This document shows positions 2,254 to 36,350 of a stretch of 64,000 bases of DNA, piece by piece. Position 1 is the first letter of the stretch; each line of letters opens with the position of its first letter. The stretch lies in IMG/VR virus record IMGVR_UViG_3300045988_096784, one strand, 5' to 3'. The DNA is from a virus. Below the pieces are notes generated by a model, which made no database searches, was not told the origin of the DNA, and saw nothing but the letters and a program-made list of their open reading frames with translations. Made by a program: the position numbers and the translations under genes.

Positions 2254-2427
2254 TCAATAAGGAGTAGGTGTTCCATAAAGACCAGTAATATCAATATCAT
2301 TACATAGATCTCTAGTCACACAAGTTTCAAGTTCTGCCTGAGAAATAATCTCTTCCTCCGCTAGAGGTTCATCACTCTCAATAGTAGCAAGGATAGTGAA
2401 AGAAACTGCATAAGTATATTTACTCAT
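2254..2427 (-). CDS. hypothetical acidic protein (57 aa, MSKYTYAVSFTILATIESDEP...)
   Basis: ATG at 2427 preceded by AAGGAAAGGAAG and class-A promoter 2452-2500; below ORF-track size cutoff. Confidence 0.45.
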   Translation of the reverse strand: MSKYTYAVSFTILATIESDEPLAEEEIISQAELETCVTRDLCNDIDITGLYGTPTPY

Positions 2428-2602
2428 AAACTCAAAACTTCCTTTCCTTAACTTTCTATATATATTATATAATAATTTTTTTTATTTTTCAAGGAAGCGT
2501 AAGTTCTAGAAAATATTTCTCTTACGCTTCTCTTTTAGTAAGGAAGTTTGTACTATTATTAAACTTTATATTAAATATCTTAATTACCCATACCCAAAAT
2601 TT

Positions 2603-2911
2603 TTAATCAGTAATTCCCAACTTGGCTTTAAGTTCCTCAATCTTAGCTTTATCCTCTGGAGCCAACTCAGTTGGAGTAAAACTATTTGCGGATGGAGTAT
2701 CAGAACTTGATGTAGAGAGCGTACTATCTCCTCCGCCCGCAATCGGTGTCTTAGGCATTGTAAGTGATACAGCAATCTGAACAACTTCTCCACTCGCTCC
2801 ATCTTTTACTGAAATGTAAATCTTTTTATCCGAAACAAAAGAGCCTTCAAATGTTGAAAGAATTGTCTTTGTAATTAGGTCTTTCGCGGCATCTCCTCGT
2901 CTAACTGCCAT
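2603..2911 (-). CDS. hypothetical protein (102 aa)
   Basis: ORF abutting the next gene; S/T-rich central region. Confidence 0.5.
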   Translation of the reverse strand: MAVRRGDAAKDLITKTILSTFEGSFVSDKKIYISVKDGASGEVVQIAVSLTMPKTPIAGGGDSTLSTSSSDTPSANSFTPTELAPEDKAKIEELKAKLGITD

Positions 2912-4215
2912 TATTCATCGTCCTCCTCGATTAATCTATCCTCTTGTTTCATTAGATTATGGCAAGTCTTACAATACGGCCTACCATCCATCCAATAAAT
3001 TTTATCTTCATCATATATTCTACGATAACAACTATTACAAGTCAAGAAGAAATCTTCATCTGCCTCTTTCTCTGATATGCAGAAATTACATAAAAATGAA
3101 TCTTCTCTATTTATATGTTCTGTTCCACAACAGGGGCAAATTGGTCTTTCACCAATTTTGATTTGAAAAACATCATTAAAATATAGTTCTTCCACATATT
3201 TATTTTGATCTAAATGCTTTGTATAATCCTCATACTTTCCATTATTTACTGATATAATCGGTGCGTACGTACTAGAAATAACTAAATCGGAATATCCTAA
3301 ATAATCACTCATATCAATTACATCTCTCGTATCATGAATACGTCCACCTGCATTTATTTGATTATATATAAGTTGCTCACTACCCCATTGAGTTTGGATT
3401 ACTTTAAATCCATAATCAAGAGGAAGAGACATATCAAATTTAATCAATTTAAGTAACATATTATGTACACAAGCGAGTAAATCTCTTGATTCATATGGAT
3501 ATTGTCTATTATAATAAATATTTCTGATACCATCTGTATGGACTAACATTCTCCATTTTTTGCTATTCCATTTCATTCCTAATGGAAGACATTTTAGATG
3601 CTCTTGTTTACCATTAGATAAATAAGCAACAATAGTTGTTTTATCTACTAAATAACTAAGATTTCCACTTCTATAATCTCCATCAAGAGACTGACATGAC
3701 CACCAATTTTCATTGTTTTCTGAAATAGTTAAGAAATCAAGAGGATGAATAGAAAGATATAAATATCCTTCTATTTTATTTTCTTGCATATATCTTGAAG
3801 CAGTATCTTGTGCCCATCTAACAATCTCTTGACTGTTAATAAATCGCTTAAAAGATTTGGATAATTTAGAGCCTAGTGGAATATTAAAAGAAGGATATGG
3901 TAATAAAACCCTGTTATCAAAAAATCCTCCTTTATTATCTCTCAAAAATAATTCGAGATCAGTGGTTAAGATTCCGTTTTCATCAAGAGCTTGAATAAAC
4001 TCTTCAAATCTTTTATTCTTCTGCTCTTCTGTCAAAAGAATTTTAATTGGTTCCTTGCTTCTTAATATCAATTCTCCGCCAAAAAGATTTATTATATCTT
4101 TTTTCGCTTCTGCCCATTGTTCGATTAAATTTTTTGAATCGAGATAAAATGGATAATCTTGAGAATGAACAAGTACAGATTCAAAATCATTTTGTAACTT
4201 CTGTAATTCTATCAT
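2911..4215 (-). CDS. hypothetical protein (434 aa) with C-terminal multi-Cys zinc-ribbon-like region
   Basis: Long ORF without TAG; C terminus CPCCG...CNFC...CNSC...CKTC. Confidence 0.6.
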   Translation of the reverse strand: MIELQKLQNDFESVLVHSQDYPFYLDSKNLIEQWAEAKKDIINLFGGELILRSKEPIKILLTEEQKNKRFEEFIQALDENGILTTDLELFLRDNKGGFFDNRVLLPYPSFNIPLGSKLSKSFKRFINSQEIVRWAQDTASRYMQENKIEGYLYLSIHPLDFLTISENNENWWSCQSLDGDYRSGNLSYLVDKTTIVAYLSNGKQEHLKCLPLGMKWNSKKWRMLVHTDGIRNIYYNRQYPYESRDLLACVHNMLLKLIKFDMSLPLDYGFKVIQTQWGSEQLIYNQINAGGRIHDTRDVIDMSDYLGYSDLVISSTYAPIISVNNGKYEDYTKHLDQNKYVEELYFNDVFQIKIGERPICPCCGTEHINREDSFLCNFCISEKEADEDFFLTCNSCYRRIYDEDKIYWMDGRPYCKTCHNLMKQEDRLIEEDDE

Positions 4216-4236
4216 CTATATATTATATCTCCCATC

Positions 4237-4950
4237 TTATAAACTCCAATCAATCGGTTCTCCACCCATAGAAAGCAGTAAATTATTTGCTGTTGAAAAC
4301 GGTTTACTACCTTTAAACGCAGGAGTTCCTTTACATGGTTTACTTACACTAAAAGGACTTGGATGGGAAGATAAAATATAAGCCTTCTTAATCAAATTCT
4401 CTCTGGCAACTCCAGGTCCATCCCATACCATAGGACTAGAATTTAAATCTTTTAATAAATTCTGAGCATTAGCTCCCCATAACATAAAAACAATAGGTTG
4501 TGGCAAATGAGTTGCAGCTTTCAACACCGCTGTCGTAAACCTGTTCCATCCCCAATTAACACAGCTATTGGCTTGATGTTCATAGACAGTTAAACTTGCA
4601 TTAAGAAGCAATACTCCTCTTTCTGCCCAAGATGTTAAATCTCCAGACTGCGGAATTGGAATCCCTAAATCGCTATTAAGCTCGCTAAAAATATTTCTTA
4701 AAGATGGTTGAATGGGGCTCCCATCAGAAATAGAAAATGCTAACCCGTTTGCTGCGCCTGGGGTATGATACTGGTCTTGTCCTACAATACAAACTTTTAC
4801 ATCTTCTGGATGCGTAAGATTAAGCGCTCTAAAGATTTTATCCTATTCTGGAAATAAAATCTTTCCTTTAGAGCGCTCTTCTAAAGCATGATTTTCAAGT
4901 TGAACACTTAAATCCAGTGCCTCTTGAGGAAGAATTTCCGACCATTTCAC
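4237..4950 (-). CDS. ung: uracil-DNA glycosylase (family 1), reads through one in-frame TAG
   Basis: Motifs GQDQYH (GQDPYH), GVLLLN and HPSPFS match the UDG fold along the whole length. N-terminal two thirds only contiguous if TAG at 4843-4845 is translated. GTG start with AAGGAG. Confidence 0.8.
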
Positions 4951-5015
4951 TTTAGAAACACTCCTTTTATTATCTTTATAATAATATTATAATATATAAA
5001 AATAATAAAATCTAA

Positions 5016-5792
5016 TTATTTCTTTTTGCTAAGTCTAGCAAGTTCATGGAAATGCGAGATTACTGAAAAATAAGTATCACAATAATGACAAGAATGACCG
5101 GGTATATTACATTTTTGCCCACAGTTTAAACGAGTTTTTGCAAATGTTTCTTTAAATGTTAGATTATTTCTTGCCGGTAAGCCATCAATAAGAAGATTTA
5201 TGTCATAATTAAATGAACCTCTATTATAGATATTAAACAGAGTATCTTCTTTTTCTAAATTAGGTTGCTTAAAATCTATTACATCAATAGCAGAATATAA
5301 ATGGAGATCCTCTGGACGAATAAAAAAACTTGAAGGTTTTCTTTCTGCGGATAGGGAGACATTAGGGGAAATGGTGGGTGATACTCTTATCTTAATATCT
5401 CCTTTAACCTTTTCTAATAACTCCATTTGAAATCCTAGTGGTCCATCTATATAGATGTCACTAACCTTGGCCTCCCGCAATTCTTGAAAAGTTTCCCAAT
5501 CAGTAACCGGGAACCGCAAATATCTATTATATCCCATATCTTTTAAATCATTTAATTGATATATGTTTCCGCATTGAATAGTGTAATCATTTGCTATTGT
5601 TTTAATTATCTCAACCTGCTCAGCCAATCTTGTTAATTGCACCTGAGTTAATTCATCTGGAATAATTATATTACACCTTTTATTTGGATTTTCTTTAAGA
5701 AATTTAATGATTGTTCCTAATTGATTGTAGGGGCAACGTATCTCTCCAGCTATTTTTATATTGCCGGAATGATAATTTACACTAAATATCAT
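5016..5792 (-). CDS. hypothetical protein (258 aa), Cys/His-rich C terminus
   Basis: ORF, no TAG. Confidence 0.55.
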   Translation of the reverse strand: MIFSVNYHSGNIKIAGEIRCPYNQLGTIIKFLKENPNKRCNIIIPDELTQVQLTRLAEQVEIIKTIANDYTIQCGNIYQLNDLKDMGYNRYLRFPVTDWETFQELREAKVSDIYIDGPLGFQMELLEKVKGDIKIRVSPTISPNVSLSAERKPSSFFIRPEDLHLYSAIDVIDFKQPNLEKEDTLFNIYNRGSFNYDINLLIDGLPARNNLTFKETFAKTRLNCGQKCNIPGHSCHYCDTYFSVISHFHELARLSKKK

Positions 5793-9768: not shown

Positions 9769-9960
9769 TTAATTAGAATACTCTTCAACCATTTGAGAAA
9801 GCATATCAATTTCATCATCTGTTATGTTATCAAAAAAGATGCCGTATTTTGCGCAGATTTGAACTTGCTGAGATGGATCATTCATAGCCCATGGCTTTGA
9901 AGCTAATTCTCGAGCGGCCAGTTCAAAAGCGCCAGTGTATGCGAGAAATGACATATCCAT
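9769..9960 (-). CDS. hypothetical protein (63 aa)
   Basis: ORF. Confidence 0.45.
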   Translation of the reverse strand: MDMSFLAYTGAFELAARELASKPWAMNDPSQQVQICAKYGIFFDNITDDEIDMLSQMVEEYSN

Positions 9961-9963
9961 ATT

Positions 9964-10398
9964 TTACACCTCCTCTACAGAATCAAATTCATGAATTAAG
10001 ATTGCTCCATCGCTGATTTTTTCTGCGCAAACAATGTGTTTAATTTCATATTTATTTTCATTAGGACAATAAACAATGTGTCCACTTTTTAGCAAGGAAA
10101 GAAAGTCACTTTGATAGTAAGTACGACCTCCGAACTCGTTGCAAATTTTAAGGCGAATTTTATATCCTTCATCAACAGAATAGAGATCTCTTACATTATT
10201 ATCTACTTCGCATAACCGCCAAGTTGGGTCTCCATTATTAATGCTGACTCCAAGAACCGGAATAGGACTATAAGTTTCTTGAATAGCGAAAAATTTAGCT
10301 CTTTTGAGTTGGTCTGTATCAGAAAAGCCGAGGAACTCGCAGATTCTTACAGTGGAGTTCTTATATCCTTCTGATTTAATCAGTTCACTAATCTTCAT
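9964..10398 (-). CDS. hypothetical protein (144 aa)
   Basis: ORF with class-A promoter 10421-10460. Confidence 0.5.
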   Translation of the reverse strand: MKISELIKSEGYKNSTVRICEFLGFSDTDQLKRAKFFAIQETYSPIPVLGVSINNGDPTWRLCEVDNNVRDLYSVDEGYKIRLKICNEFGGRTYYQSDFLSLLKSGHIVYCPNENKYEIKHIVCAEKISDGAILIHEFDSVEEV

Positions 10399-10458
10399 AA
10401 CTTTTACTTCCTTTCCTTAACTTTCTATATATATTATATAATAATTTTATAAAAAAAT

Positions 10459-10484
10459 AAAGACGCTCTTTTAAGAGCGTCTTT
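10459..10484 (-). terminator. rho-independent terminator hairpin aaagacgctctt/aagagcgtcttt
   Basis: 12-bp perfect stem followed by a T run in the minus orientation, directly after the stop of 10488-10994. Confidence 0.6.
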
Positions 10485-10487
10485 ATT

Positions 10488-10994
10488 TTACTCAAGGTCG
10501 ATTACATAATTCTCTTGGATAAATGAATCTTCTGGAATATAGATGGTATACTCGGTAGACCAGGGTCCAAGCAAGAAATTCAAAACTGGGTTTTTAAAAC
10601 GGATTTTGTTTTCTTCTATGTATGGGGCATCATCTGTATTCTTAATATAGGACTGATCTGCCTCAATAGATTTGGCGGTTATACCTTTATCTGTTTGATA
10701 CAGGAATGAGTAATAGAGCCCATCTTCTGTATAATAACGGCCTACGTAAGAACTAAAATTATCACTCAAAGCAGTAATAGAATATGTTTGAGTGGTTTTT
10801 GCAGAATAAGTTGCAGGTTCAACAAAAATAACAATACCACAAATTATAATCGCAAATAAGAAAGCGATAAATGCTGAAAGTACAACTCCGAGAATTGTAG
10901 AGAATAGATATTCTGCAAAAGAGTCACAGTCTTTATATAATACTATAAGAGATGTAACCATGAGTAATATAAAGAATCCAATAGCTAATGGCAT
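10488..10994 (-). CDS. membrane protein (two N-terminal hydrophobic helices)
   Basis: ORF; N-terminal 60 aa strongly hydrophobic. Confidence 0.55.
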   Translation of the reverse strand: MPLAIGFFILLMVTSLIVLYKDCDSFAEYLFSTILGVVLSAFIAFLFAIIICGIVIFVEPATYSAKTTQTYSITALSDNFSSYVGRYYTEDGLYYSFLYQTDKGITAKSIEADQSYIKNTDDAPYIEENKIRFKNPVLNFLLGPWSTEYTIYIPEDSFIQENYVIDLE

Positions 10995-11298
10995 AAGTAA
11001 AACCTCTTTTCTTATTTATATAAATATATTACCATATTTTATTAAGATACGCAAGTAAATCTTATGGATTATAACGAACCGTCATAATTTCTCACTGACG
11101 CGGGAATTTTTTAGGCAGAGAAATTGGCAATCCCGCGGTAATTTTAATAAAATGGTCATAGAGGTATTTTTGTCCAAAATTTTCTAATGTATTGATTGTT
11201 CTATTGTTTATAATTTTAGAAAAAAGTTTAACAAATTTTAGGACAAAACCAGAAAATTATGTTATAATAAAAGTAAAGAATAGTAGAGAGGTGATTTT

Positions 11299-11442
11299 AT
11301 GAATTATTCCACTGTTTCTGTTAGATTAACAGAGGAAGAGAAGAAAGATTTGGAAGTCTTTGCTAAGAGTTGTGATTTAACAATGTCTTAGGTAATTAGA
11401 AAGGCTGTTAAAGAATATATTGAGAAAAATAAAATAGACTAA
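11299..11442 (+). CDS. ribbon-helix-helix (CopG/Arc-like) DNA-binding protein, one in-frame TAG
   Basis: MNYSTVSVRLTEEEKKDLEVFAKSCDLTMS-TAG-VIRKAVKEYIEKNKID; GAGGTGA ribosome-binding site; ends TAA. Confidence 0.6.
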
Positions 11443-11457
11443 AGGAGATTAAACTAA

Positions 11458-11679
11458 ATGACTAATGATACTTATAAAGTTTTTACGGTAAAGTTAGCAC
11501 GCAAACTCTGTGATCTTGGTTTTATTATTGTTGGAACTGTTCCTAATGTTTAGAAACCTTGGTTAAATGTTTATCTTTTTGAAGATAGTTAGGATTTAAG
11601 GGATGCAGTTTAGAAGTATAAAGGGATAAGTTCGCTATTGGAGGATGATTGCCATGGCAGACAAAAGAAGAAGTCCTAA
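11458..11679 (+). CDS. hypothetical protein (73 aa) with 3 in-frame TAG
   Basis: AAAGGAG ribosome-binding site, ATG, frame open through 3 TAG to TAA. Confidence 0.45.
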
Positions 11680-12043
11680 TTAGCGAACTATTAATCATAT
11701 TCATAAGGAACCATGTGATACTAATAATATATATGCTAGGATTAATAAGGAAGCGTTATTTGCGGCCCGTAGAGAGTTGACAGATGGAGAGTTCTCTTTG
11801 TGGATATTTTTTGCTAGTCAATCTGAGAGGTTAACTGATTATGATTTTGGGCCTACTATTATAGAAAAAGAGCTTGGTATAAAGAGAGCGAAATATACAA
11901 GTGCAGTAGATGGATTGGTAAAAAAGGGATATTTAGTTCCAGTTGAGAGAAAAGGATATTACGATTTTTACGAGATTCCTATTGATAGTGACGACGATAA
12001 ATATAATTATATAGCTCCAGACGGAGAGAAATTTTCTTTTTAA
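11654..12043 (+). CDS. putative iteron-binding replication initiator (winged-helix-like), one in-frame TAG
   Basis: GGAGGA ribosome-binding site, ATG; C-terminal AKYTSAVDGLVKKGYLV helix-turn-wing motif; immediately followed by iteron array. Confidence 0.5.
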
Positions 12044-12380
12044 TCGTATTTCTGCAATACTATGAAAAATTTCATGTATTTCTGAGAATACTATGATTTC
12101 ATCATATTGTGAAAAAGCTATGAAATTTTCATGTATTTGTTGGAAAGCGATGAAATTGTTTTCATAGTATTATCAGAATACTATGAAATTAATTGAAAAG
12201 GATTTTCATAGCTTTTTCACAATACCATGTCATAGTATTCTGACAATACCATGAAAGTAAATAAAAATCCATTTCATGGTATTCTGACAATACAACAAAT
12301 ATAACATATATTAGATAACAGAGTTAAGATAACAGTCGCGACTTTTTCATGTATTTGTGAAAAAGCGATGAGTAGGAGGA
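12040..12380. repeat. iteron or origin-like array: 6 or more imperfect palindromic copies of TTTCATGTATT...GAATACTATGAAA
   Basis: Direct and inverted copies (tttcatgtatttctgagaatactatga, tttcatagtattatcagaatactatgaaa, tcatagtattctgacaataccatgaaa and others) read directly from the sequence. Confidence 0.65.
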
Positions 12381-12387
12381 TTAAGGC

Positions 12388-12564
12388 ATGGAAGTATTTA
12401 AACCGATTAAGGTAGAAAATTATCAATTCATGAAGAATGGATTAAATTAGTATGAACCAGTATTAGTTTACTTTAAAGATGATGAAGAAGAAGGCAAGGT
12501 ATATTTTGTAATCTTATGGGGGAGAATAGAGGAGATTAATATGGCTATGAAGTAGCCATATTAA
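12388..12564 (+). CDS. hypothetical protein (58 aa) with 2 in-frame TAG
   Basis: AGGAGGA ribosome-binding site, ATG, ends TAA. Confidence 0.4.
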
Positions 12565-12609
12565 GGAAGGTTTTAGAAATTTCGATTTAAAAAATCCTAA
12601 GAAGAAGGG

Positions 12610-12720
12610 ATTTAGAATTTCAAATTAAAAAAATAGGAGATAAGAGAGAGAATAAGGATATAGGAAGAGAGAGATAGAGAGATGGATAGAGAAAGAAATA
12701 ATAATAGAGTTTTAGTAAGA
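12610..12720. repeat. polypurine (GA-rich) low-complexity tract
   Basis: ggagataagagagagaataaggatataggaagagagagatagagagatggatagagaaagaaataataatag. Confidence 0.5.
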
Positions 12721-12852
12721 ATAATAGAAAAAAAATAATAGAAATTGATAAAATAGGGAAGAGAGGTGCCGATCGGGTCTAGGTACAACCATCACAACAC
12801 TCGTCACAATGATCGTAAACCTAGCCTTCCGCGATTATAATATATATAAAAA

Positions 12853-12885
12853 GGAGAGAAGCTACAACACTTCTCTCCTTTAATC
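12853..12885. terminator. bidirectional terminator hairpin ggagagaag/cttctctcc
   Basis: 9-bp perfect stem, 8-nt loop, between convergent plus-island and minus gene 12904-13347. Confidence 0.55.
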
Positions 12886-12903
12886 TTTTTCCTCTTGTTT
12901 ATC

Positions 12904-13347
12904 TTACTTCAAATGTCTCAAAAACTCCATGATATTGCCCTCATCAGTCTTAGCCTTATTCATACTACCTGCAAGAGCATCAGAAATAGAATCAACAGCA
13001 ATGTCAATTACTTCATCAAGACTCTCTGCATTAACAACCTTAGCGGAAGTCTTAGCAGTTACAGTCATAGCCTGCATAAACTGCTCAATATCCTTAGCTG
13101 TCCACTTAGGATTGCTCTTGCTATAAACCAACGCAGCCACACGGCCAACGTCATCCTCAGTAAGAGACAAGTCATCAACATTTTCATAGAAAGTAGACTC
13201 AATCTCATCCAGAAGAATATCTCGCTCACGGTCTGCGGCGTTAGCCTCGGAGATTCTATTCATAGCATCGGTAAATGCCTTTGCAATCTCCTCCTGAGTA
13301 GAACCATTCTGCATTGCATCACGAATCATAATCTCATAACTATTCAT
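12904..13347 (-). CDS. hypothetical acidic protein (147 aa)
   Basis: ORF with class-A promoter 13405-13450. Confidence 0.5.
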   Translation of the reverse strand: MNSYEIMIRDAMQNGSTQEEIAKAFTDAMNRISEANAADRERDILLDEIESTFYENVDDLSLTEDDVGRVAALVYSKSNPKWTAKDIEQFMQAMTVTAKTSAKVVNAESLDEVIDIAVDSISDALAGSMNKAKTDEGNIMEFLRHLK

Positions 13348-13453
13348 AATAAGTTCTTTTAGTTAGAAAAAGCGTTATGATGCTTCTTAACTAAAATCCT
13401 CCTTTTCTTTATCTTATATATATATTATATTATATTTTTTATATATTGTCGAA

Positions 13454-14110
13454 CCGATCGGGTCTAGATAAAAAGATCGCTTTAACGGAATCCCGCGGAA
13501 AAGATTTTTACTTTTTAAATTGTTAGCAACATCTTTGCTATTGTTTGCTGTATCTTTAATAGTTTTAATTCTGTGAATATCAAGAAATTTTGAGAAAAAC
13601 GAGGCATTTTTTGCTTATTTTTAAGTAAATTTGTTAGAAAAACGCGTATTTTTGCAAGATTTTAGAGGTTTTTCGTTATATTTTGCGATAACAAGAGGTA
13701 AAAGATCGCGGGCCGATCGGTTTATCTAGCTAAAATCTCTATTTTTGAGCTATTTTTATCATAAAATCGTGTTAAACCGATCGGTTCCGCGAAAGAAATC
13801 TCTGGTCGTATTTGTTTTTCATAGCTATATCTTTGCTATTGCTAGTTGTATCTTAGAAAGTTTTGGTACTGTGAATACTTGACAATTTTAAGATTTTTAT
13901 TATAAAAAATTGGACGAGAGAGCCAATATCGCTGGACCGATCGGAACTGGATAAAGGAAGAAGTAAAGTAGGGCCGATCGGTGTTTGGAAGAGGGCGTTA
14001 TGAATTTTGGGAAAATTGCTATGAAGTTGCGTTATGGCCAAGTTGCTATGAAAATTTTGCGCTATGGTCCGATCGGGGAAATTCGGGCCGAGTCGCCCGC
14101 GACCGGCCCG
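13454..14110. repeat. gene-free repeat zone: about 7 copies of palindrome CCGATCGG (one more at 12769), 14-bp repeat ccgatcgggtctag, two about 70-bp direct repeats and tandem 30-bp units
   Basis: CCGATCGG at 13454, 13712, 13776, 13936, 13974, 14069. Direct repeats 13521-13595 and 13826-13897. Tandem ttgctatgaa...gcgctatgg units 14015-14070. Confidence 0.65.
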
Positions 14111-14132
14111 TCGAGTTTAGAAAATATAAAAT

Positions 14133-14160
14133 AAAAAGAGAGGCCGAAGCCTCTCTTTTC
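14133..14160 (-). terminator. rho-independent terminator agagaggc-ttcg-gcctctct
   Basis: GC stem plus T run in minus orientation just after stop of 14161-14412. Confidence 0.55.
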
Positions 14161-14412
14161 TTAATCCTCGTTTTCTAAATTGATTTCTCCTATACAGTTA
14201 CACCGTATCGGAGATTCAAGAACAAATTCATCTCCATATCCAACGATAGTTATTTCTCCATACTTTTTACAATACTCGTCTATCTTTTCGATTATACTAT
14301 TCCAATCTTTCTCTTGCGCTTTTTGTTTTCTAAGTGCCACTTCTTTATAGGCGGTAGCACTCAACCATTGCAACTCCTCGTCATTCAGTTTGTTGAAATC
14401 AATATCAACCAT
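14161..14412 (-). CDS. hypothetical protein (83 aa)
   Basis: ORF. Confidence 0.5.
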   Translation of the reverse strand: MVDIDFNKLNDEELQWLSATAYKEVALRKQKAQEKDWNSIIEKIDEYCKKYGEITIVGYGDEFVLESPIRCNCIGEINLENED

Positions 14413-14429
14413 CTAAAAATCTCCTTTCT

Positions 14430-14918
14430 TTAATGAAAAATCTCAGCCGGAATTTCACTAAAAACTTGCTTAAATTGCTCCATAGTCAGTTCTCTTGCCG
14501 CTCTCTCGACCCTTTCTTTTGCCCAGTCGCAAACCATTTCACAAGAAATAAATTTAATTTCATACCCGGTAATGGCGTAGATTTTAGGCGACCACTCAAA
14601 TCTTTTTGTATCAGCCATATTTCCAGTTAAAATCATATATTCGCCGGTGGCTTGATTTTCTTCTGACTGTTCAACCCAACATTGAACTATATTTTCAACA
14701 TAGTTTTTCCCCGTTTTAACCGCTTCTTTTTCGGTTCGAGCATTGATTAAAAAGGTAGAAAGCATAATATCATCACGAAATGATACCGTAAATTTATAAG
14801 GCTTCTTAGAGAAGATACCCTTGCGACCTTCACACCAAAAGGTAACTTGAAAATTAACACGAAATTGTTTCAGACTTTCCATTTCTTTTATCTCCTTTCC
14901 ATGGTTAAATGATACCAC
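14430..14918 (-). CDS. hypothetical protein (162 aa)
   Basis: ORF; class-B promoter TTGACT-17-TGgTATCAT immediately upstream. Confidence 0.55.
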   Translation of the reverse strand: MVSFNHGKEIKEMESLKQFRVNFQVTFWCEGRKGIFSKKPYKFTVSFRDDIMLSTFLINARTEKEAVKTGKNYVENIVQCWVEQSEENQATGEYMILTGNMADTKRFEWSPKIYAITGYEIKFISCEMVCDWAKERVERAARELTMEQFKQVFSEIPAEIFH

Positions 14919-14946
14919 ATTTTTGGGAGAAAGTCAAGCTGTCAAG

Positions 14947-14977
14947 TTGCACAAATTTTCAATTCAAAATTGTTGAA
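14947..14977. promoter_or_regulatory. inverted-repeat site TTGCACAA-N15-TTGTTGAA upstream of -35
   Basis: Member of the TTGCACAA/TTGTGCAA family. Others at 16696-16773 (4 half-sites), 18168-18199, 19053-19084, 20705-20736, 22147-22178, 23838-23878. Confidence 0.55.
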
Positions 14978-14998
14978 AATGACAATAGAAGAAAAAAT

Positions 14999-15025
14999 CG
15001 GACCGCGGCGCACGCAAGCGGTCCG
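14999..15025. other. GC-rich hairpin cggaccgc-GGCGCACGCaa-gcggtccg (REP-like family)
   Basis: Related hairpins with GGCGCACGC-type loops at 22200-22226 and 19105-19134; further GC hairpins at 16795-16830, 18223-18250, 20760-20790. Confidence 0.5.
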
Positions 15026-15041
15026 CCCAAAATTTTGCGTA

Positions 15042-15071
15042 AAAAAATCTCCCCCATAAGGGGAGATTTTT
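15042..15071 (-). terminator. rho-independent terminator aaatctcccc-ataa-ggggagattt plus T run
   Basis: Directly after stop of 15074-15424. Confidence 0.6.
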
Positions 15072-15073
15072 CT

Positions 15074-15424
15074 TTAATTGAGAATTATCGGGTATGCCTT
15101 GCGAATAACCACCGTAACCATGGCCGGGGGAGTGTCGCACAAGAAACGGTCATTTCTGATAAAACGACCAATTCCCATACTCTGCCACAAAGTTCGGTTT
15201 ACATCCTCGTATCGTAGGGTATTATACTTGGAAAGTTTGATATGCCAATCATAGATAAAGGAACCATCTTCCGGCATGGTATAATCTAGCGCCCGCTTAT
15301 AATTTCTCGTATGTTCTGCGGCTCTGCGCTCAAGGTCATTTGTCGTACCAATCTTGAGAATATAGCGCCCCTTTTTGTCGATATAATGTCCGACATATAG
15401 GAACTCTTTTCCCCTTGTCTGCAA
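15074..15424 (-). CDS. GIY-YIG domain protein (free-standing nuclease-like)
   Basis: EFLYVGHYIDKKGRYILKIGTTNDLERRAAEHTRNY matches GIY-x10-YIG...R...E arrangement. Confidence 0.55.
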   Translation of the reverse strand: MQTRGKEFLYVGHYIDKKGRYILKIGTTNDLERRAAEHTRNYKRALDYTMPEDGSFIYDWHIKLSKYNTLRYEDVNRTLWQSMGIGRFIRNDRFLCDTPPAMVTVVIRKAYPIILN

Positions 15425-15480
15425 ACTAACTATAACTTGCCTCTTTTCTGGTAGGGCCGGGGTAGGCCGACCCTACCCCG

Positions 15481-15798
15481 TTATTTCTTCGGCTTACGCT
15501 TTTGCACAAGCGTCAACTCGAAACTATCCCCACCAATAGAAAACGCAATCTGTCTTTCCTTATTAGTAATAGACAAATCAGCGATAGAGAATTGACTGTT
15601 TTTTTCCAAAAACTCTGCCAATTCCGCGATTATACCGCCTTTCGTGGCGTTTGGCTTGCGTTGCCGTGTAGTGAACTTATATGCGGTTGGCTGTTTGCGC
15701 GTTCCAGCATGGGCAAACTTTTGAGCGATTTTCGCCTTTTCTGGCGGTAAATCGTATTCAGTCTTTTTATCAGCCTCTACCGCTTTATCATAGGCCAA
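15481..15798 (-). CDS. hypothetical basic protein (105 aa)
   Basis: ORF. Confidence 0.5.
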   Translation of the reverse strand: MAYDKAVEADKKTEYDLPPEKAKIAQKFAHAGTRKQPTAYKFTTRQRKPNATKGGIIAELAEFLEKNSQFSIADLSITNKERQIAFSIGGDSFELTLVQKRKPKK

Positions 15799-15936
15799 TA
15801 AATCTGCCTCCTCTTCCGGCGTTAATTGTAGGGCTTTATACCTTGCAATCCGTTCAGCGTCACTAATACGACTGGATATAATATCACCCCCATATTATAA
15901 GTTAGGGCGGGGATTTTCACCCCGCCCTATACGGGG

Positions 15937-16347
15937 TTACGCCATCTTAAAAAGGGACTTGCCCTTCTTTTCCGTGCAGACCACTCGACCATCGAGTTTC
16001 AACTGCCGCACAAGGGCGGCGACCTTCTGGTTAGAATAGGCCGTCAGATCAGGAATAGCCTTAAAAATTTCCGTGCAAGTCACGCCATCGGTATCGGCAT
16101 CCAGATCAGCCAGATACTCCATAATCTGCTCCTTAAAATTCTCGTTCTCCTGTTGGGTGGGAGTCAGCTTCTTGTCACCGCTAGAGCTATTCTTCTTACG
16201 CAGAAGCTCCAGCTCATGGTCAATGACAGTAATAGCCACCTCGATGGTAGTGCCATACTTTACCTCGCCGTCAGTCAAGAGGGTCTTAATGTCTTCAAAA
16301 CGCTGGGCCTTAGTAATGCGGATTTTCTTCTCGTCCATAATATACAT
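15937..16347 (-). CDS. hypothetical protein (136 aa)
   Basis: ORF; promoter TTGACA-17-TGgTACAAT in minus orientation at about 16395-16425. Confidence 0.55.
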   Translation of the reverse strand: MYIMDEKKIRITKAQRFEDIKTLLTDGEVKYGTTIEVAITVIDHELELLRKKNSSSGDKKLTPTQQENENFKEQIMEYLADLDADTDGVTCTEIFKAIPDLTAYSNQKVAALVRQLKLDGRVVCTEKKGKSLFKMA

Positions 16348-16439
16348 CCTTTCTGGTTTTTAGGACTGTCCTTGTCCTTTGATTATATTGTACCACACTA
16401 TTTGGTACTTGTCAAGAGGTTTTTCAAACTTTTTTCAAG

Positions 16440-16640
16440 AACTTTTGCCCTTTACTTGTTTGCCCTCTCAACCTCCCTTATAGTGTAACACACTTTGGAA
16501 AGTTTGTCAAGCCCTTTTTATTTAATTTTCAAGGTACATTGCCTTGTTTTCTGTACTTATTATAGCACATCTTCAAAGGCTTGTCAAGAGGTTTTTAAAA
16601 GATTTTTGAGAAATTCGCTGTCACTGTCTGCCGTTCGTCT
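16440..16640 (-). promoter_or_regulatory. two additional tandem consensus promoters without a downstream ORF
   Basis: Minus orientation: TTGACAagcctttgaagatgtgcTATAAT and TTGACAaactttccaaagtgtgtTACACT; no coding frame of any size before the next promoter. Confidence 0.45.
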
Positions 16641-16837
16641 CTCTCACTTTCTGAATGTATTTTACCACAAGCAAAAGCAGATTGCAAGCGTCAAATTGCA
16701 CAAAAAATCGGAATTTTGGGAGAGAGTTTTTGTGCAAAATTCTGCACAAAAACGGGACGAAATTTTTGTGCAACATTACCATTGAAAAATTCGGCCCGCG
16801 TCAGCCATCCGCGGGCCGTCGACCTTTTAGATATAAA

Positions 16838-16862
16838 AAAAAATAAGAGGGCTGTAAAGCCC
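16838..16862 (-). terminator. rho-independent terminator aagagggc-tttaca-gccctctt plus T9
   Basis: Perfect stem followed by 9 T in minus orientation after stop of 16865-17050. Confidence 0.65.
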
Positions 16863-16864
16863 TC

Positions 16865-17050
16865 TTAAATATCAATCATATAACTATAAACCATATCCCA
16901 AAGCGGCATATCATTCAGAAGGATATTTACAGTCAAAAGTCCGGTTTCTGTCGGCCCATCAACAAACCATCCCAGCCGCTGCATAAGGTGAATAACCTCA
17001 TAGACATAATCGGGGTCAAGATGGTTAGTGGTAAACTGTCTTGAAAACAT
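16865..17050 (-). CDS. hypothetical protein (61 aa)
   Basis: ORF with AAAGGAAAAG ribosome-binding site. Confidence 0.45.
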   Translation of the reverse strand: MFSRQFTTNHLDPDYVYEVIHLMQRLGWFVDGPTETGLLTVNILLNDMPLWDMVYSYMIDI

Positions 17051-17077
17051 TTCTTTTCCTTTCTATCGGGCGGGGCT

Positions 17078-17902
17078 TTAAGCCCCTACCCGAATTGTCG
17101 GATTATTTTTCAAACTTGCGGAAAGTTGACGCTGAAAATCTGTCATAGGCGGAAACTCTCTTTTATTCTCATACAGGGCCTTTCTCATGGGCTTATGCTG
17201 ACGCATACAATACCACATGATTTCCGCCTCAATCAGAACATCCTCAAGCCCCGTATGACTTTCTTCAAAATCGGTATTGCCAGAGATAAACCGCCACACG
17301 ATTTCCGCAGTCTTGCGGGGGACACCATTAGCCTGGACATATCCGTTTTCCTGACAGAATTTCTTATAAGTGGGCATATTGCAGATAACATCCTGTGTCA
17401 TCTTCATAATATCCCAAATCTCCACGCTGTCAAACGGGAACCAATAACGCCACTTGGAGTAGGTCACATAACGCTGTGTAACTCTCAAGGCATTATCGTC
17501 AAATCTGGCATTATAAGCCGCAACTTCCTTAATGCCGTATCGCTCAATGGTATTGAGCATAGCTTGGCGGATTTCATAAGTGGTAGCCATTTTACGAGTG
17601 CCGGCCCGCAGTTCCTCAATATAGCGGGGAATTTTCCAATTATAATAAGCAGTCCGCATGAGATCCCGCTCGTCATTGAAAATGTCCCGATTTACAAAAC
17701 TTGCAGTTTCGTAAATATTGCCCTTGGTATCTACCACGGCCCAGCCGCAGTCATATACCAATACATTTGACATATCCATACGGACACGCTCGGGGGTGAT
17801 AATCTCCCCATCTTCCCCGATTTCAGCGGGAACGGTTTCGGTTAAAGTGTTGGCGGTTTCAGTGTCAACCACCAGCACATAATGTCTACGCTTATCAATC
17901 AT
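17078..17902 (-). CDS. DnaQ-like 3'-5' exonuclease (DEDDh family)
   Basis: Exo I motif VLVVDTETAN and Exo III motif HTGLEDVLIEAE; perfect promoter TTGACA-17-TGcTATAAT in minus orientation at 17945-17975. Confidence 0.65.
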   Translation of the reverse strand: MIDKRRHYVLVVDTETANTLTETVPAEIGEDGEIITPERVRMDMSNVLVYDCGWAVVDTKGNIYETASFVNRDIFNDERDLMRTAYYNWKIPRYIEELRAGTRKMATTYEIRQAMLNTIERYGIKEVAAYNARFDDNALRVTQRYVTYSKWRYWFPFDSVEIWDIMKMTQDVICNMPTYKKFCQENGYVQANGVPRKTAEIVWRFISGNTDFEESHTGLEDVLIEAEIMWYCMRQHKPMRKALYENKREFPPMTDFQRQLSASLKNNPTIRVGA

Positions 17903-18290
17903 AATCTATCAAGTCCTTTCTTCTCTTCATGGTATTATTATAGCACAATTAAGGCTTGGTGTCAAGAGGAAAAGGAAATTTCGTTGCGATTTATTGCAAG
18001 CTACTGGACGATGGAACGGCCTATTCCAAAGGCGCTCACTCGACTTACGACACAATATAAATTTACTTCCTTTACTTTCTAAGAGTTCGCGACCTCTTGA
18101 TTTCTTGGCCTTCCCCTCTTGACAAATATATAATACCATACTTTCGGGATAATTACAAGATGGCAAATTGCACAAAATTTGCAAGCCAAAATTGTGCAAC
18201 ATCGACAAAAACAAAAACTCGGCTAGCCGCGTGCGCCAGCGAGCCGCCCAAACGATATTAAAGAGTAAAAATAAGAGGGCCGAAGCTCTC

Positions 18291-18479
18291 TTAATATCCA
18301 AGATATTCTTTATTGATAATCTCGTCAAGCCAATAGCTCAAATCTTCAAGCGAAATATCGTCATCAATTTCATGGTCGGCCATAACCTGATCAATTTGAC
18401 CAATGAGAATGAACGCATTTTTCAATACTTGTCGCTCTTCCTCGCTGAGGATAAGCCTATTAACCTTTCTAATCTTCAT
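18291..18479 (-). CDS. hypothetical protein (62 aa)
   Basis: ORF followed by terminator aagagggccgaagctctctt 18275-18294. Confidence 0.45.
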   Translation of the reverse strand: MKIRKVNRLILSEEERQVLKNAFILIGQIDQVMADHEIDDDISLEDLSYWLDEIINKEYLGY

Positions 18480-18519
18480 TTACAAAACTTCCTTTCTTAT
18501 TTTAAGATTGACTGGTGGA

Positions 18520-18984
18520 TTACTCTACCAGTCGCCATAAGGCCGTAGGTAAATCTTCATGTGGCTCGATTGTTTCCCCTAAATGCCAACCATCCCGCAC
18601 ACTTTTATTATCGTCAATCAAAATAAAATTGCTAACCCCCGGCTCGAAGTATTTTCGCACACAGTTTGCTTTTGTTGTGCCATATTCCACAAGGTGGACT
18701 TTATGTGCGGGGAAGTTGTATTTTGCAAGCCAAGTGCGCTTTGCGTCACGGACAGCGGTTTTATATGAGTTAGAACTGTCTTTTGCAAGCCAACTGATAA
18801 CCCGAATTTCCCAGCCCTGTTCAATAAGTTTATTGAGAACGGTATTCAATTCTTCCATATCGCAAAGAGGTTTAGCGACTGTATATGGATAGGGGTTTTC
18901 ATTCATTAAATCTTTCAGCCATCCATCTACGCCGTACAGGTCAGCGATTGTTCCATCCATATCAAAGCAGAGCATCTTTTTCAT
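18520..18984 (-). CDS. HAD-superfamily hydrolase (5'-nucleotidase-like)
   Basis: N-terminal motif I LCFDMDGTIAD; length and C-terminal D-rich motif consistent with HAD phosphatases. Confidence 0.6.
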   Translation of the reverse strand: MKKMLCFDMDGTIADLYGVDGWLKDLMNENPYPYTVAKPLCDMEELNTVLNKLIEQGWEIRVISWLAKDSSNSYKTAVRDAKRTWLAKYNFPAHKVHLVEYGTTKANCVRKYFEPGVSNFILIDDNKSVRDGWHLGETIEPHEDLPTALWRLVE

Positions 18985-19183
18985 TTTGATTTACTTCCTT
19001 TCTTTAGGTTGATTAAAGTATATCAGATTTCGGGATAGAAAACAAGAGGCAAAATACACAAAATTTCGGTTGGAAAATTGTGCAACTTCTACAAAAGAGA
19101 AAATTCGGCGCGCCACGCACGTTAGCGCGCCGCCGAGAAACCTATTCAAAAAATGGGATAAAAAAGAGGGCTTCGGCCCTCTT

Positions 19184-19645
19184 TTAACTTTCACATATAT
19201 TTGCAAGAAATCTTGCAGAAAGTTTAACCATGTCATGGACAGATTCTTCGTTATTGCTATTTTTATAGCAAATAAAACCAACCTGGTCGCCATTCACAAG
19301 AATTGGTGTAATAAACATACTTTCCCATTTTGTCGCCGAACTGCGAATATCAATCCAGTCATCGGGAACCCTTGTAATTCCAAATGAACGCGGCCCGCAT
19401 AAAATTCCATCATTGTCAAAAATAGCCGCGGCGATTCTGTTAGATGAAAGGGCATTTTGCATTTGTTTAGCGTAAGAGGAAAATTCTCCCATTATAGAAT
19501 ATTTCTTAAAAACTACGCCGCCATCTTCTTCAAGAAAAATCTCTAATGGGTCGCCTTCTCTAATATGAAGGTTTCTACGGATTTCCTTTGGAATTACTAT
19601 CCGGCCCAAATCATCAATACGGCGCACAATTCCAGTAGCTTTCAT
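19184..19645 (-). CDS. AbrB/SpoVT-family transcriptional regulator (swapped-hairpin domain plus C-terminal domain)
   Basis: N terminus MKATGIVRRIDDLGRIVIPKEIRRNLHIREGDPLEIF is the AbrB/MazE/SpoVT barrel signature. Confidence 0.65.
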   Translation of the reverse strand: MKATGIVRRIDDLGRIVIPKEIRRNLHIREGDPLEIFLEEDGGVVFKKYSIMGEFSSYAKQMQNALSSNRIAAAIFDNDGILCGPRSFGITRVPDDWIDIRSSATKWESMFITPILVNGDQVGFICYKNSNNEESVHDMVKLSARFLANICES

Positions 19646-19697
19646 TTTTATCTGCGGGAGTGCAAGATTTATAGTCTTGCACTCCCTTCCTCCCTTC

Positions 19698-20090
19698 TTA
19701 ATCCAGTTCTTTCAACATCCGTTCGAGGTCAGCTTTAGTACCACCCAACTCAAGCGTAAGAATAATTTCCGTTACGGCATTTTTCTCCCAGTCGCTAACT
19801 TCCCGCATGGCCTTTTTCTTCTCGTTCTCCATAGCGGGGTAAATACAATCCTGGCAAGCCTCTACCAGCCGGTCATTATATCTGCGGAAACTCATCCCCT
19901 TGTTTTTAACCTCCGAAAGAAGTTCGTCGTTAAGGGCTTTTACCGCCTGCTTAACTTTCTCCTGCATGATTTTACACTCTGTCTCATAAGCGGAAAAGGT
20001 TTCATGGACAGCCTGCCTCTTGATTTCAGCCTTTACTCCAACTTCCTTTTCAATATACTCCCGAACAACCTTACTAACACGCATTTCCAA
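19698..20090 (-). CDS. hypothetical protein (130 aa)
   Basis: ORF; promoter TTGACA-17-TACAAT in minus orientation at about 20150-20185. Confidence 0.5.
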   Translation of the reverse strand: MEMRVSKVVREYIEKEVGVKAEIKRQAVHETFSAYETECKIMQEKVKQAVKALNDELLSEVKNKGMSFRRYNDRLVEACQDCIYPAMENEKKKAMREVSDWEKNAVTEIILTLELGGTKADLERMLKELD

Positions 20091-20179
20091 AACTTCCTTT
20101 CTTAATTTTAATTTTTATTTATCGGGGTCGCCCCTTCCATGGTCTTATTGTACCATAGTTGGGGCGATTTGTCAACCCC

Positions 20180-20332
20180 TTACATCAAAGTTTTTGCAAG
20201 ATACGCAAACATTAAAATCTCCGCCGCAAACATGATTTCAAGTCCTATGCAATCTCTTTCAATAGCGGCTACAAATTGCCATACCAGACATAGAACAAAA
20301 GCAATCAGAATTATCATGGTAAAAGTTGTCAT
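20180..20332 (-). CDS. small hydrophobic membrane protein (about 50 aa)
   Basis: Internal ATG with GGGGTGA ribosome-binding site; MTTFTMIILIAFVLCLVWQFVAAI. Confidence 0.4.
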   Translation of the reverse strand: MTTFTMIILIAFVLCLVWQFVAAIERDCIGLEIMFAAEILMFAYLAKTLM

Positions 20333-20336
20333 ATAC

Positions 20337-20594
20337 TCACCCCGCAAAGGAAACTTCCGCAAAGTTGATATTGAAACGCTCCCATTCACTTTCCATACCT
20401 AACATCATATCATGGAAAAGGTCATCACGATTTTCATATCCATCTTCTTCCAGAATAGCCTCCCATTCTCCATCGTCATATTGATTTTCCAGATAATCCA
20501 AAGCAGACTTGCGGGCGGCGATGGTATTAGACGCTACGCAGATAGGTTTATCGTCGTATCCGTCCGTGACCAAAATCATTTTCTTTTCTTCCAT
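20337..20594 (-). CDS. hypothetical acidic protein (about 85 aa)
   Basis: ORF trimmed to internal ATG with AAAGGAAAG ribosome-binding site. Confidence 0.45.
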   Translation of the reverse strand: MEEKKMILVTDGYDDKPICVASNTIAARKSALDYLENQYDDGEWEAILEEDGYENRDDLFHDMMLGMESEWERFNINFAEVSFAG

Positions 20595-20806
20595 GATTTT
20601 TTCTTTCCTTTCTTTCGAGGTGTTTCTGTCTCCCTCTTTCTGATAATAATATACCACAGGCAAAGCAGAAAGTCAAGCGATTTTAGGAAAAAATCTTTCG
20701 TCAGATTGCACAACAATTCGAGCCTAAAATTGTGCAAATTGCCTCTTGATAAAAAATTCCGGCCGCGCCTGTGGTGCACGGCCGGGCGAACGAATAAAAA
20801 AAAAGA

Positions 20807-20831
20807 ACCTCCTGAATTTCAGGAGGTCATT
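20807..20831 (-). terminator. rho-independent terminator aacctcctgaa-att-tcaggaggtt plus T9
   Basis: Stem followed by 9 T in minus orientation after stop of 20870-21103. Confidence 0.6.
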
Positions 20832-20869
20832 AATTTCTGCATACCAACAACTTCCTTTCTTTTGAGAAG

Positions 20870-21103
20870 TCAATCGGCATCTTCAACAATCTTTAATCCG
20901 TTTGCTTGGATAATTTTCATAGCTTCTTCAAGCGAGGAATCAACCGATCCGCAGTCGATACAGATATATTTTCTGCCATCTTTTACCATAGTAGTAAAAT
21001 AGTATTCTTGGCCAGAAACAAGGCCCATCTACTCTCGCAGTCTTACTGGAATCATGATACGCCCACTTGAATCTAATTTCCTTGAGAAAGTAGTTTCTTG
21101 CAT
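20870..21103 (-). CDS. second AbrB/MazE-type small DNA-binding protein (77 aa), one in-frame TAG
   Basis: MQETTFSRKLDSSGRIMIPVRLRE-TAG-MGLVSGQEYYF matches the swapped-hairpin motif; start without clear SD. Confidence 0.5.
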
Positions 21104-21509
21104 TTTGATAAATAAATTCTAGTGACCTAGGCTCGTGCGAAAAACGACTCCATCACGGGAATCGCCGATTTAGAACAATCGGAAGGAACATTTACCACTC
21201 GCAAGGCATTTTCTGGCAGAACTGAGACATAGGATAATTCTTGCAAGAATCCTAGTTCAAACAGAACTCCAAAATAACCGCAAGCGCTTTCAGCACTTCT
21301 AAGGTCATTAGAAAAACTCCTTTCTTTATTTTTCTATAATTATTATAATATATTTTTTTGAAAAAATCAATAGGGCCGGCATTACGCCAGCCCTAATCTC
21401 TGCAACCAAACCAGATGGTATTTACCAATGTGAAGTAGAACTGTGCCATATCCCTTATCCGTCCAGACAGTGGAGCCGATAGGATATGTGTGCGGTAAAC
21501 GCTCAATAC

Positions 21510-21725
21510 TCACTTTAGTTCCACCTCCTCGAAAGCTCCAATTTTTAGCAGATAATTATATAAGGCTCTATCTTGCTTGTCACCGGTATTAAAATCAAGT
21601 GTACGAACACAGCCGGTAACATTGGAATTGAGAGGATGACCCAAACACCAGCCAACCATATTACAAATTGTGTTTCCAAACTCCACAGACTTTTCTGCAC
21701 TTTCAAATTTAATAACAGCAATCAT
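21510..21725 (-). CDS. hypothetical protein (71 aa)
   Basis: ORF. Confidence 0.45.
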   Translation of the reverse strand: MIAVIKFESAEKSVEFGNTICNMVGWCLGHPLNSNVTGCVRTLDFNTGDKQDRALYNYLLKIGAFEEVELK

Positions 21726-21787
21726 ATTTATTCCTCCTTTTTATCGTGGGGAGTAGAGGTTTGTGGCCTCCACTCCCGCAAGTTTTC

Positions 21788-36344: not shown

Positions 36345-36350
36345 TTGACA

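Follow-up and report, generated by a model that had tools for sequence, protein, structure and literature searches.

In lambda and the lambdoid phages, the N-terminal domain of the initiator protein O binds dyad-symmetric repeats that lie in, or at, the 3' portion of the gene encoding it; a linker peptide changes in length with the repeat number, protein and sites change together, and the module is exchanged (PMC7466680). In TAG-recoded phages the published pattern is that early genes keep the standard code and late genes are recoded, and Borges et al. report that replication genes follow the standard code in some of the clades and are 'variably' recoded in the others (10.1101/2021.08.26.457843). 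In phages of the phAss-1 group the tRNA array is large and a tail protein is very long (PMC10607447). The locus described here is a 1.2-kb cassette in a 64,000-nt stretch (hereafter, the window) of the IMG/VR record IMGVR_UViG_3300045988_096784, whose source is a large uncultured phage decoding TAG as glutamine. We consider it probable that this cassette encodes a lambda-O-like origin-binding protein with external iterons, accompanied by a ribbon-helix-helix (RHH) autoregulator and a DUF5659 partner. To our knowledge, no replication origin has been described so far for these large TAG-recoded phages.

When TAG was counted as a sense codon, the codons of the window contained in open reading frames (ORFs) of at least 100 amino acids rose from 9,843 to 21,508, and none of the 57 annotated genes tallied used TAG as terminator. 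The 27 leftward genes between 2.6 and 26.2 kb contain a single in-frame TAG in 4,597 codons (0.2 per 1000), whereas the rightward (late) block contains 274 in 11,686 codons (23 per 1000). This codon usage agrees with the early-standard, late-recoded pattern of 10.1101/2021.08.26.457843. A leftward block nearly free of TAG next to a TAG-rich late block is a likeness to the TAG-to-Gln recoded phages of Borges et al. and the phAss-1 group, and the general build of the window phage, including the large tRNA array and the very long tail protein, is similar to that of the phAss-1 group (PMC10607447). What differs from the TAG-recoded phages is a 0.75-kb group of three genes (g1, g2 and g3) with a late-type TAG density (five in 249 codons, 20 per 1000), placed on the opposite strand inside the standard-code block (Table 1). 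Since g1–g3 need TAG as Gln, their proteins would be made only once the TAG suppression of the phage is active, and such a TAG density within a TAG-avoiding block indicates that they are evidently not needed before that moment.

Table 1. Positions in the window of the cassette, its parts and its surroundings.
Feature	Position	Strand	Remarks
Exchangeable cassette (promoter and operator, g1, g2, g3, repeat array)	11150..12375	+	Replaced precisely in L011/L015
Operator-like repeats, divergent promoter region	11168..11249		Candidate RHH binding site
Sigma-70-type island promoter	11240..11268	+	AGGACA, 17 nt, TG-n-TATAAT (TGTTATAAT); 10/12 consensus matches, extended -10
g1, 47-aa RHH protein, CopG/Arc type	11299..11442	+	One TAG, at 11389 (Gln31)
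g2, 73-aa DUF5659 protein	11458..11679	+	TAGs at 11551, 11590 and 11611; 26-nt overlap with g3
g3, 129-aa winged-helix protein, putative origin-binding initiator	11654..12043	+	TAG at 11681 (conserved Gln10)
Nine 27-bp palindromic sites, TTCATRGTATT-N5-AATACYATGAA	12040..12372		After g3
g4, truncated remnant, 58 aa	12388..12564	+	Two TAGs; from a 139-aa Glu/Lys-rich ORF
Conserved right-end element	12766..12838		Begins with GTGCCGATCGG, which is the first CCGATCGG box
Bidirectional intrinsic terminator	12850..12881		Scan positive on both strands; closes the island and the incoming leftward gene 12904-13347
Non-coding field, 813 bp	13348..14160		Six CCGATCGG boxes
Leftward block	1-27.2 kb	-	Starts with tRNA array 194-2125
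Rightward (late) block	27.3-64 kb	+	Phage sigma factor first, then portal, capsid-type and virion proteins, 2,908-aa ORF

One important question is whether the protein encoded by g3 belongs to a family of replication initiators. Using P0001 (96% identical to g3) as phmmer query against 1.84 billion representatives (E<=1e-3), 520 metagenomic relatives were obtained; they have the N-terminal ~110 amino acids in common and many of them are 200-380 amino acids long. PHROG and Pfam families were scanned in 117 of these relatives, with PHROG matches taken at E<=1e-3. The 'replication initiation protein' family phrog_270 was matched by 74 of the 117, the 'DnaD-like helicase loader' phrog_186 by 47, a further 'replication initiation protein' family, phrog_428, by 38, the 'replication initiation O-like' family phrog_678 by 37 and Pfam HTH_36 also by 37; DnaD_N was found in two. 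All five long-form members examined matched initiator PHROGs. On this evidence the link of g3 to the lambda-O-like initiator PHROGs (270/428/678) is transitive, that is, it runs through the homologs. An AlphaFold model built from the family alignment is a winged helix with a predicted local distance difference test (pLDDT) score of 87, so that g3 is predicted to possess the N-terminal winged-helix DNA-binding domain by which membership among lambda-O-like initiators can be judged. Against solved structures the model scored modestly, considering how common the fold is; Foldseek searches of viral models returned only weak matches such as a 'RepA-like initiator', and a profile search of PDB sequences retrieved only cullin and YjcQ winged helices. 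No match to the region, by DNA or by protein, was found among 50,697 phage records.

The g3 protein consists of one winged helix followed by an acidic tail of 20-25 amino acids ending in GEKFSF. Phe is the last residue in 45 of the 117 family members (background 3.9%); 23 end in FxF and seven in [IL]PF, which resembles the tip of SSB. In two relatives, P0007 and P0009, a long linker of repetitive peptide sequence joins the winged helix to a conserved C-terminal G-x-K-F-x-F, and in the window lineage this tail comes directly after the winged helix. The pattern suggests that the Phe-ending tail is a recruitment peptide. The position of a further family member is also informative. A place between early and terminase genes is the usual one for replication genes, and in the small temperate phage L021 the g3-family gene lies between the terminase genes and an integrase with small early genes. 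The L021 sequence (Logan SRR21150876 contig, 2039-5787) is itself TAG-recoded; its integrase and three small early genes are TAG-free, the initiator-family gene, with a duplicated winged helix, has eight TAGs and the next gene has three.

The array that follows g3 contains nine copies of the palindrome, starting at 12040, 12071, 12098, 12128, 12161, 12205, 12229, 12273 and 12346, with centre-to-centre spacings of 31, 27, 30, 33, 44, 24, 44 and 73 bp. An earlier reading of the window, made from sequence only, had announced at least six palindromic iterons behind four genes; the copies are more numerous and the array, which begins at the g3 stop codon, lies between g3 and the fourth ORF. With up to three mismatches the window contains four sites, every one inside the array (100 dinucleotide shuffles gave 0.00), and with up to four mismatches seven of the eight sites of the window fall in the array. 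No second cluster of sites was found in the 64 kb, and none at any other promoter. An exact half-site, TTCATGGTATT, is located at 17926-17936, 24 nt upstream of the start (17902) of gene 17078-17902 (274 amino acids, no Pfam match); this is the only good half-site match outside the array and may be due to chance. The array is A+T-rich (73%), like the spacer 12296-12345 (72%), compared with 65% for the window; the cassette itself contains no A/T run that stands out, and the nearest long one measures 34 bp (13414-13447). Explanations by RNA were rejected: at Rfam gathering scores only tRNAs were obtained, and the microRNA-like matches of the island were at chance level and derived from the palindromes.

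The repeats, on whose presence in related genomes the sequence-only reading had depended, recur there. Five IMG/VR contigs (L001-L005) share the island in synteny and keep 6-8 sites (<=5 mismatches). Sites of the window type occur only where there are g3 orthologs and are gone where the cassette has been replaced. More distant relatives have g3 proteins 49% (L006) and 47% (L007) identical, L006 also keeping the RHH and g2 genes between leftward blocks; both have arrays of ~9 copies that overlap the 3' end of the g3-family gene. The outer TTTCAT...ATGAAA is constant, and the window, L006 and L007 each have a different inner half-site. Four of the five long-form members (L009, L010, L019 and L020) contain 3-6 tandem in-gene repeats of ~23 bp, located directly after the part coding for the winged helix. 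Repeat arrays are thus inside, overlapping or just after the g3-family gene in all lineages examined but one, and we conclude from this comparison that repeat position is a family trait, each lineage having its own repeat sequence.

Replacement of the whole cassette was observed in L011 and L015, whose flanks are ~92-97% identical to those of the window and in which 11150-12375 is swapped for ~950 unrelated bases. The replacement carries one gene for a 212-amino-acid protein and its own repeats, GGGTAATTTTATCTAT and GAGGTAAAA. This protein matches HTH_36 (6e-4, residues 54-84) and, weakly, ScpB and initiator families (residues 98-200); by these matches it looks like a protein with apparently two helix-turn-helix or winged-helix regions. 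Its family is common on contigs of 140-280 kb, and L016 and L017 likewise carry it as an isolated plus-strand gene within a leftward block. A third variant, in L018, has RHH and DUF5659 genes followed by a 123-amino-acid protein with a C-terminal resolvase-type helix-turn-helix and ~11 GACAAAA heptads. Comparison of these variants indicates that the locus always consists of a DNA-binding protein with its own adjacent repeats, the pair varying by lineage. Hence, so far as genome comparison can tell, close relatives exchange the cassette for other cassettes of the same protein-plus-repeat kind.

The other genes of the island were analysed in the same way. Ribosome-binding sites are good for g1, g2 and g3, and the differences from L004 (~81% identical) are distributed over the three codon positions as 6/5/18, 8/8/22 and 14/10/41, respectively; by this bias the three are real genes. 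The sequence-only reading had counted a fourth, which proved to be the truncated remnant g4. When translations were compared, the intact form of g4 was found in L011 (139 amino acids) and differently broken forms in L001, L003 and L004. The purine-rich tract up to ~12765, the most purine-rich 200 bp of the window, is the decayed remainder of g4; as an origin feature, the tract at 12480-12800 was rejected for this reason. Convergent minus-strand blocks had been described on both sides of the island. This holds for the right junction, at the bidirectional terminator, but the left one is divergent, because the minus-strand gene 10488-10994 starts at 10994 and its transcription heads away from the island.

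The RHH assignment of g1 is upheld by Pfam: it exceeds the cut-offs of both DUF6290 (3.8e-9, 37 bits against 27) and RHH_1 (24.4 bits against 20.5), and it also matches transcriptional-repressor PHROG families. The DUF5659 match of g2 (1e-4) was obtained from the window protein alone, and its homologs carry PF18903. The predicted fold of g2 is beta-alpha-beta-beta-alpha, for which no informative structural match was found. A DUF5659 gene is located directly upstream of the initiator-family gene in the window lineage, L006, L020 and L021, and two genes before it in L009; in L018 it precedes the different DNA-binding gene mentioned above. In-frame TAG had been reported for all four ORFs, as is indeed the case. 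The TAG of g1 corresponds to CAA in L004 and L005, one CAA of g3 is TAG in those two contigs, and TAG10 of g3 falls on a position where Gln is conserved to at least 90% in the 117-member family alignment. These substitutions in g1 and g3 indicate that TAG in the island genes is decoded as Gln.

The island promoter is kept in L001-L005. Promoter class provides no clue about timing, as early, island and late-block promoters are alike sigma-70-like. Around the promoter lie the operator-like repeats: TTTTGTCCAAAATTTT at 11168-11183, its inverted copy AAATTTTAGGACAAAA at 11233-11248 and a further ATTTTAGAAAAAA copy at ~11210-11226. The 16-nt inverted repeat formed by the first two overlaps the -35 hexamer and faces the leftward promoter 11095-11068. 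Hardly any differences separate the window from L004/L005 in this block, and L001 and L003 bear extra direct copies. The inverted repeats at the g1 promoter are a candidate RHH operator. Another motif, CCGCGGGATT, occurs twice on the minus strand (11129-11138 and 13489-13498), preceding by ~35 nt the -35 hexamers of two leftward promoters (11095->11068 and 13452->13424, respectively). It may be a regulatory site common to both; its count was reached by 15 of 100 shuffles and is within chance.

To the right of the island, seven of the window's eight exact CCGATCGG octamers fall within 12769-14076 (at 12769, 13454, 13713, 13777, 13937, 13974 and 14069). Clusters of 4-7 such boxes occupy the same place in L001-L006 and L011-L018, covering all cassette types, and the boxes are invariant islands in diverged sequence, with an invariant block, TCCGATCGGGGAAATTCGGGCCGAGTCGCCCGCGACCGGCCCG, at ~14067-14110. 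The gene for the protein that reads them must lie outside the cassette. This field may represent the conserved part of the origin or the operator field of a regulator, and its non-coding part 13348-14160, which also contains a 72-nt direct repeat, a 34-bp pure A/T run and a leftward promoter, may form part of the same functional unit as the cassette. CCGCGGGATT and CTAGACCCGATCGG had been considered as attachment-site halves, an idea that was dropped once CCGATCGG proved to be a multi-copy box field conserved under any cassette. The right-end element 12766-12838 (~70 nt) has hardly changed among L001-L005, where the sequence around it is variable, and its start motif is present in relatives with each cassette type; across relatives only its ends, GTGCCGATCGG and CCGCGATT, are conserved. 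It folds moderately, better on the minus strand (z = -2.8) and with G-U pairs. It has no Rfam match, and neither a consensus structure nor covariation was detected across seven relatives.

Compared with the described systems, the g3 family shares with lambda O the repeats in or next to its own gene, linkers that are lengthened by repeats (P0007 and P0009), protein and sites that differ together across relatives, and a module swapped between relatives. It differs in that g3 ends after the winged helix with a tail of ~20 amino acids, whereas the C-terminal domain of lambda O binds P; in that the nine 27-bp sites are outside the g3 ORF; in that no P-like or DnaC-like loader gene follows g3; and in that g3 alone has no significant match to O-like PHROGs. 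With the N-terminal domains of DnaD and Firmicute DnaB, and with the phage 'replisome organiser' or DnaD-like initiators (phrog_186, phrog_270), the likeness is that 47-74 of 117 members match, but g3 lacks the C-terminal DnaB_2 domain of DnaD, DnaD_N is confined to the two members already mentioned, and g3 does not show the pair of DnaD N-terminal and DnaB_2 C-terminal domains of primosomal proteins. The RepA of plasmids pSK41 and pTZ2162 (RepA_N) binds iterons as a dimer through a winged-helix N-terminal domain; g3 differs in having neither a RepA_N Pfam match nor a DnaD-like C-terminal domain, and in belonging to a phage, not to a plasmid. Nor does g3 have a Rep_3 match or the two tandem winged helices of iteron-plasmid Rep proteins (Rep_3 / RepA WH1-WH2), and the array sites, palindromes of 27 bp at 24-73 bp spacing, are not the direct 17-22 bp iterons of Rep_3/RepA plasmids. 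The arrangement of the operon recalls copG-repB of pMV158, where a gene for an RHH protein of 45-50 amino acids opens the initiator operon and an inverted repeat lies at the promoter, and the RHH protein of L006 matches RepB-RCR_reg weakly. In this case the differences are that the initiator here is not a rolling-circle HUH nuclease, that the DUF5659 gene lies in between and that no antisense RNA was identified. The unusual features of the cassette are the short protein, the external palindromic iterons, the RHH and DUF5659 partners, the exchangeability and the late-type recoding in an early block.

Among the explanations weighed, the replication-initiator interpretation of the sequence-only reading is the best supported. 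It draws on the family link, the repeats in or adjacent to the gene, the co-variation of protein and sites, the single array, the Phe-ending tail, the gene position in L021 and the RHH gene before the initiator gene. It is an argument from transitive homology and comparative anatomy, not from direct family membership or function, and a number of observations weigh against it. When g3 alone was compared with Pfam, PHROGs and NCBIfam nothing significant was found: the best Pfam match is HTH_36 (E=0.005, 17.1 bits, below the cut-off of 25) and the best PHROG is phrog_270 (E=0.26). A search of the g3 product for Rep_3, RepA or DnaD similarity by hidden Markov models had been proposed as a check; since g3 matches no curated family, this test fails in its literal form, and the initiator-like character claimed for g3 stands through the homologs matching phrog_270, while g3 itself stays below curated thresholds. 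The protein has no DnaD, O or Rep effector domain, only the conserved G-x-K-F-x-F tail. Among the leftward genes scanned, which take in the neighbours of the island, none was recognised as coding for a helicase, primase, loader or polymerase, and no cluster of DnaA boxes was found near the island. The GC-skew analysis likewise proposed lends no support to an origin, at least across the window: the skew follows the direction of transcription and changes sign at ~27 kb, with the island as a local blip only, and because it tracks gene orientation it is uninformative about the origin. An initiator that needs TAG suppression is not a usual pattern, and the TAG load of the island depends on the lineage, with five in-frame TAGs in the window, four in L004, two in L006 (none of them in g3), none in L018 and 12 in the single gene of L011. 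Finally, the neighbouring CCGATCGG field could be the real origin, and cassette exchange is equally typical of immunity regions.

This last point leads to the alternative that the cassette is an immunity- or timing-type transcription control unit, in which g1 and g3 are RHH and winged-helix repressors, the array is an operator or roadblock field, and the divergent promoters and leftward early transcription are acted upon once TAG suppression starts. We regard this as unlikely. The matches of g1 to repressor families agree with it, as do the CTGACA present in two array sites, with promoter-like matches starting at 12240 and 12284, and the swapping of the cassette between relatives in the way lambdoid immunity regions are swapped; the want of an effector domain in g3 and of recognised replication enzymes nearby fits it too, and the alternative cassette gene, with 12 TAGs in 212 codons, implies a strict dependence on suppression. 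Against it, nine sites are crowded within 330 bp with none at other promoters in 64 kb, the homologs of g3 match initiator and not repressor families, the long-form homologs have in-gene repeats like those of lambda O, and the conserved Phe-ending tail suggests the recruitment of a partner. A variant that retains the initiator is of comparably low likelihood in our judgement: the cassette would be a replication-licensing switch made of exchangeable initiator, iterons and DUF5659 protein, with initiation (or a change of replication mode) timed by suppressor activity instead of transcription alone and the CCGATCGG field as the conserved half of the origin that is independent of the cassette.

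Partition centromeres of type Ib and type II typically combine RHH proteins with arrays of ~9 sites, so the array might instead be a centromere-like or DNA-organising site, coated by the RHH protein, the winged-helix protein or both (as by ParR, ParG, omega or TubR) for segregation or compaction. The weak match of the alternative cassette protein to the ScpB PHROG (4.8e-4) and the heptads of L018, which lie in both orientations and are reminiscent of omega-type sites, point the same way; the family annotation and the structure favour initiators, however, and no NTPase of the ParA, ParM or TubZ type was found in the island or among the flanking genes scanned, which makes this explanation improbable. 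Least probable of all is a selfish or hitch-hiking mini-replicon, plasmid-like rather than the phage's own origin. The cassette does have sharp boundaries, its own promoter, a G+C content below that of its neighbours and a plasmid-like layout of RHH gene, initiator gene and iterons, but it occupies the same locus in every relative, it lacks integrase, transposase and terminal repeats, and no relative was found in 72,556 plasmids, beyond weak helix-turn-helix matches on Nostoc plasmids, or in 185,579 species genomes.

If the initiator reading is followed, the cassette would work as follows. The sigma-70-type promoter would drive g1, g2 and g3 as an operon, and g1 would probably bind the inverted repeats around its own promoter, in the manner of CopG or Arc, and so regulate its own synthesis. 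Dimers of g3 would load on the nine palindromic iterons, forming a nucleoprotein complex that would melt A+T-rich DNA in its vicinity. Recruitment of the next replication factor would then fall to the conserved C-terminal peptide of g3 that ends in Phe, with the DUF5659 protein as a possible accessory. DNA binding by g3, autoregulation by g1, recruitment of a partner by the tail, and the firing of the origin and its timing are all inferred.

Should this proposal be right, a probable origin and its initiator would be located for large uncultured TAG-recoded phages, including contigs of 96-164 kb. It would define a short 'winged helix plus tail' form of lambda-O-type initiator, provide a first functional context for DUF5659 and reveal an origin module that is exchanged between phages ~95% identical in the flanking DNA. 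It would also offer a compact system for asking whether stop-codon recoding times any process beyond assembly and lysis. Should the proposal fail, the cassette would still clearly exemplify a regulatory module that is recoded and lies in an early block of standard code.

Some further observations were made in the rest of the window. The tRNA array (minus strand) comprises eight genes in the window and extends to the left in L022-L025 to at least 23 tRNAs. No suppressor tRNA with anticodon CUA was found among the eight tRNAs of the window or the up to 23 tRNAs in the leftward array extensions of the relatives (~12 kb), nor any tRNA-Gln in the stretches of the array seen in the window and L022-L025. 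Neither code yields a confident ORF in the 2-kb stretch 20664-22684 of the leftward block, which is the largest ORF-free gap and has a minus-strand-like GC skew. The sole TAG-bearing leftward gene between 2.6 and 26.2 kb encodes a uracil-DNA glycosylase (4237-4950, minus strand), its TAG preceding the GQD(P/Q)YH motif, and the two leftward genes beside the divergence point at 27.2 kb (26090-26914 and 26862-27200, minus strand) are TAG-rich, with four and six, respectively.

In the late block, five genes within 34583-36942, 40093-41484 and 43052-43591 (plus strand) are TAG-free, among them those of a capsid-type protein (35292-36344) and one virion structural protein; their neighbours have 12-40 TAGs per 1000 codons. 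The first gene of this block (27297-28367, plus strand) encodes a phage sigma factor (phrog_5767, 1e-38) and has 11 in-frame TAGs, so that late transcription itself may depend on TAG suppression. The minus-strand segments 24328-25517 and 19184-19645 encode a PTH2-type peptidyl-tRNA hydrolase, a microbial PARG-type macrodomain protein and an AbrB/SpoVT-like regulator; of these, the hydrolase may matter in a phage that interferes with how stop codons are decoded.

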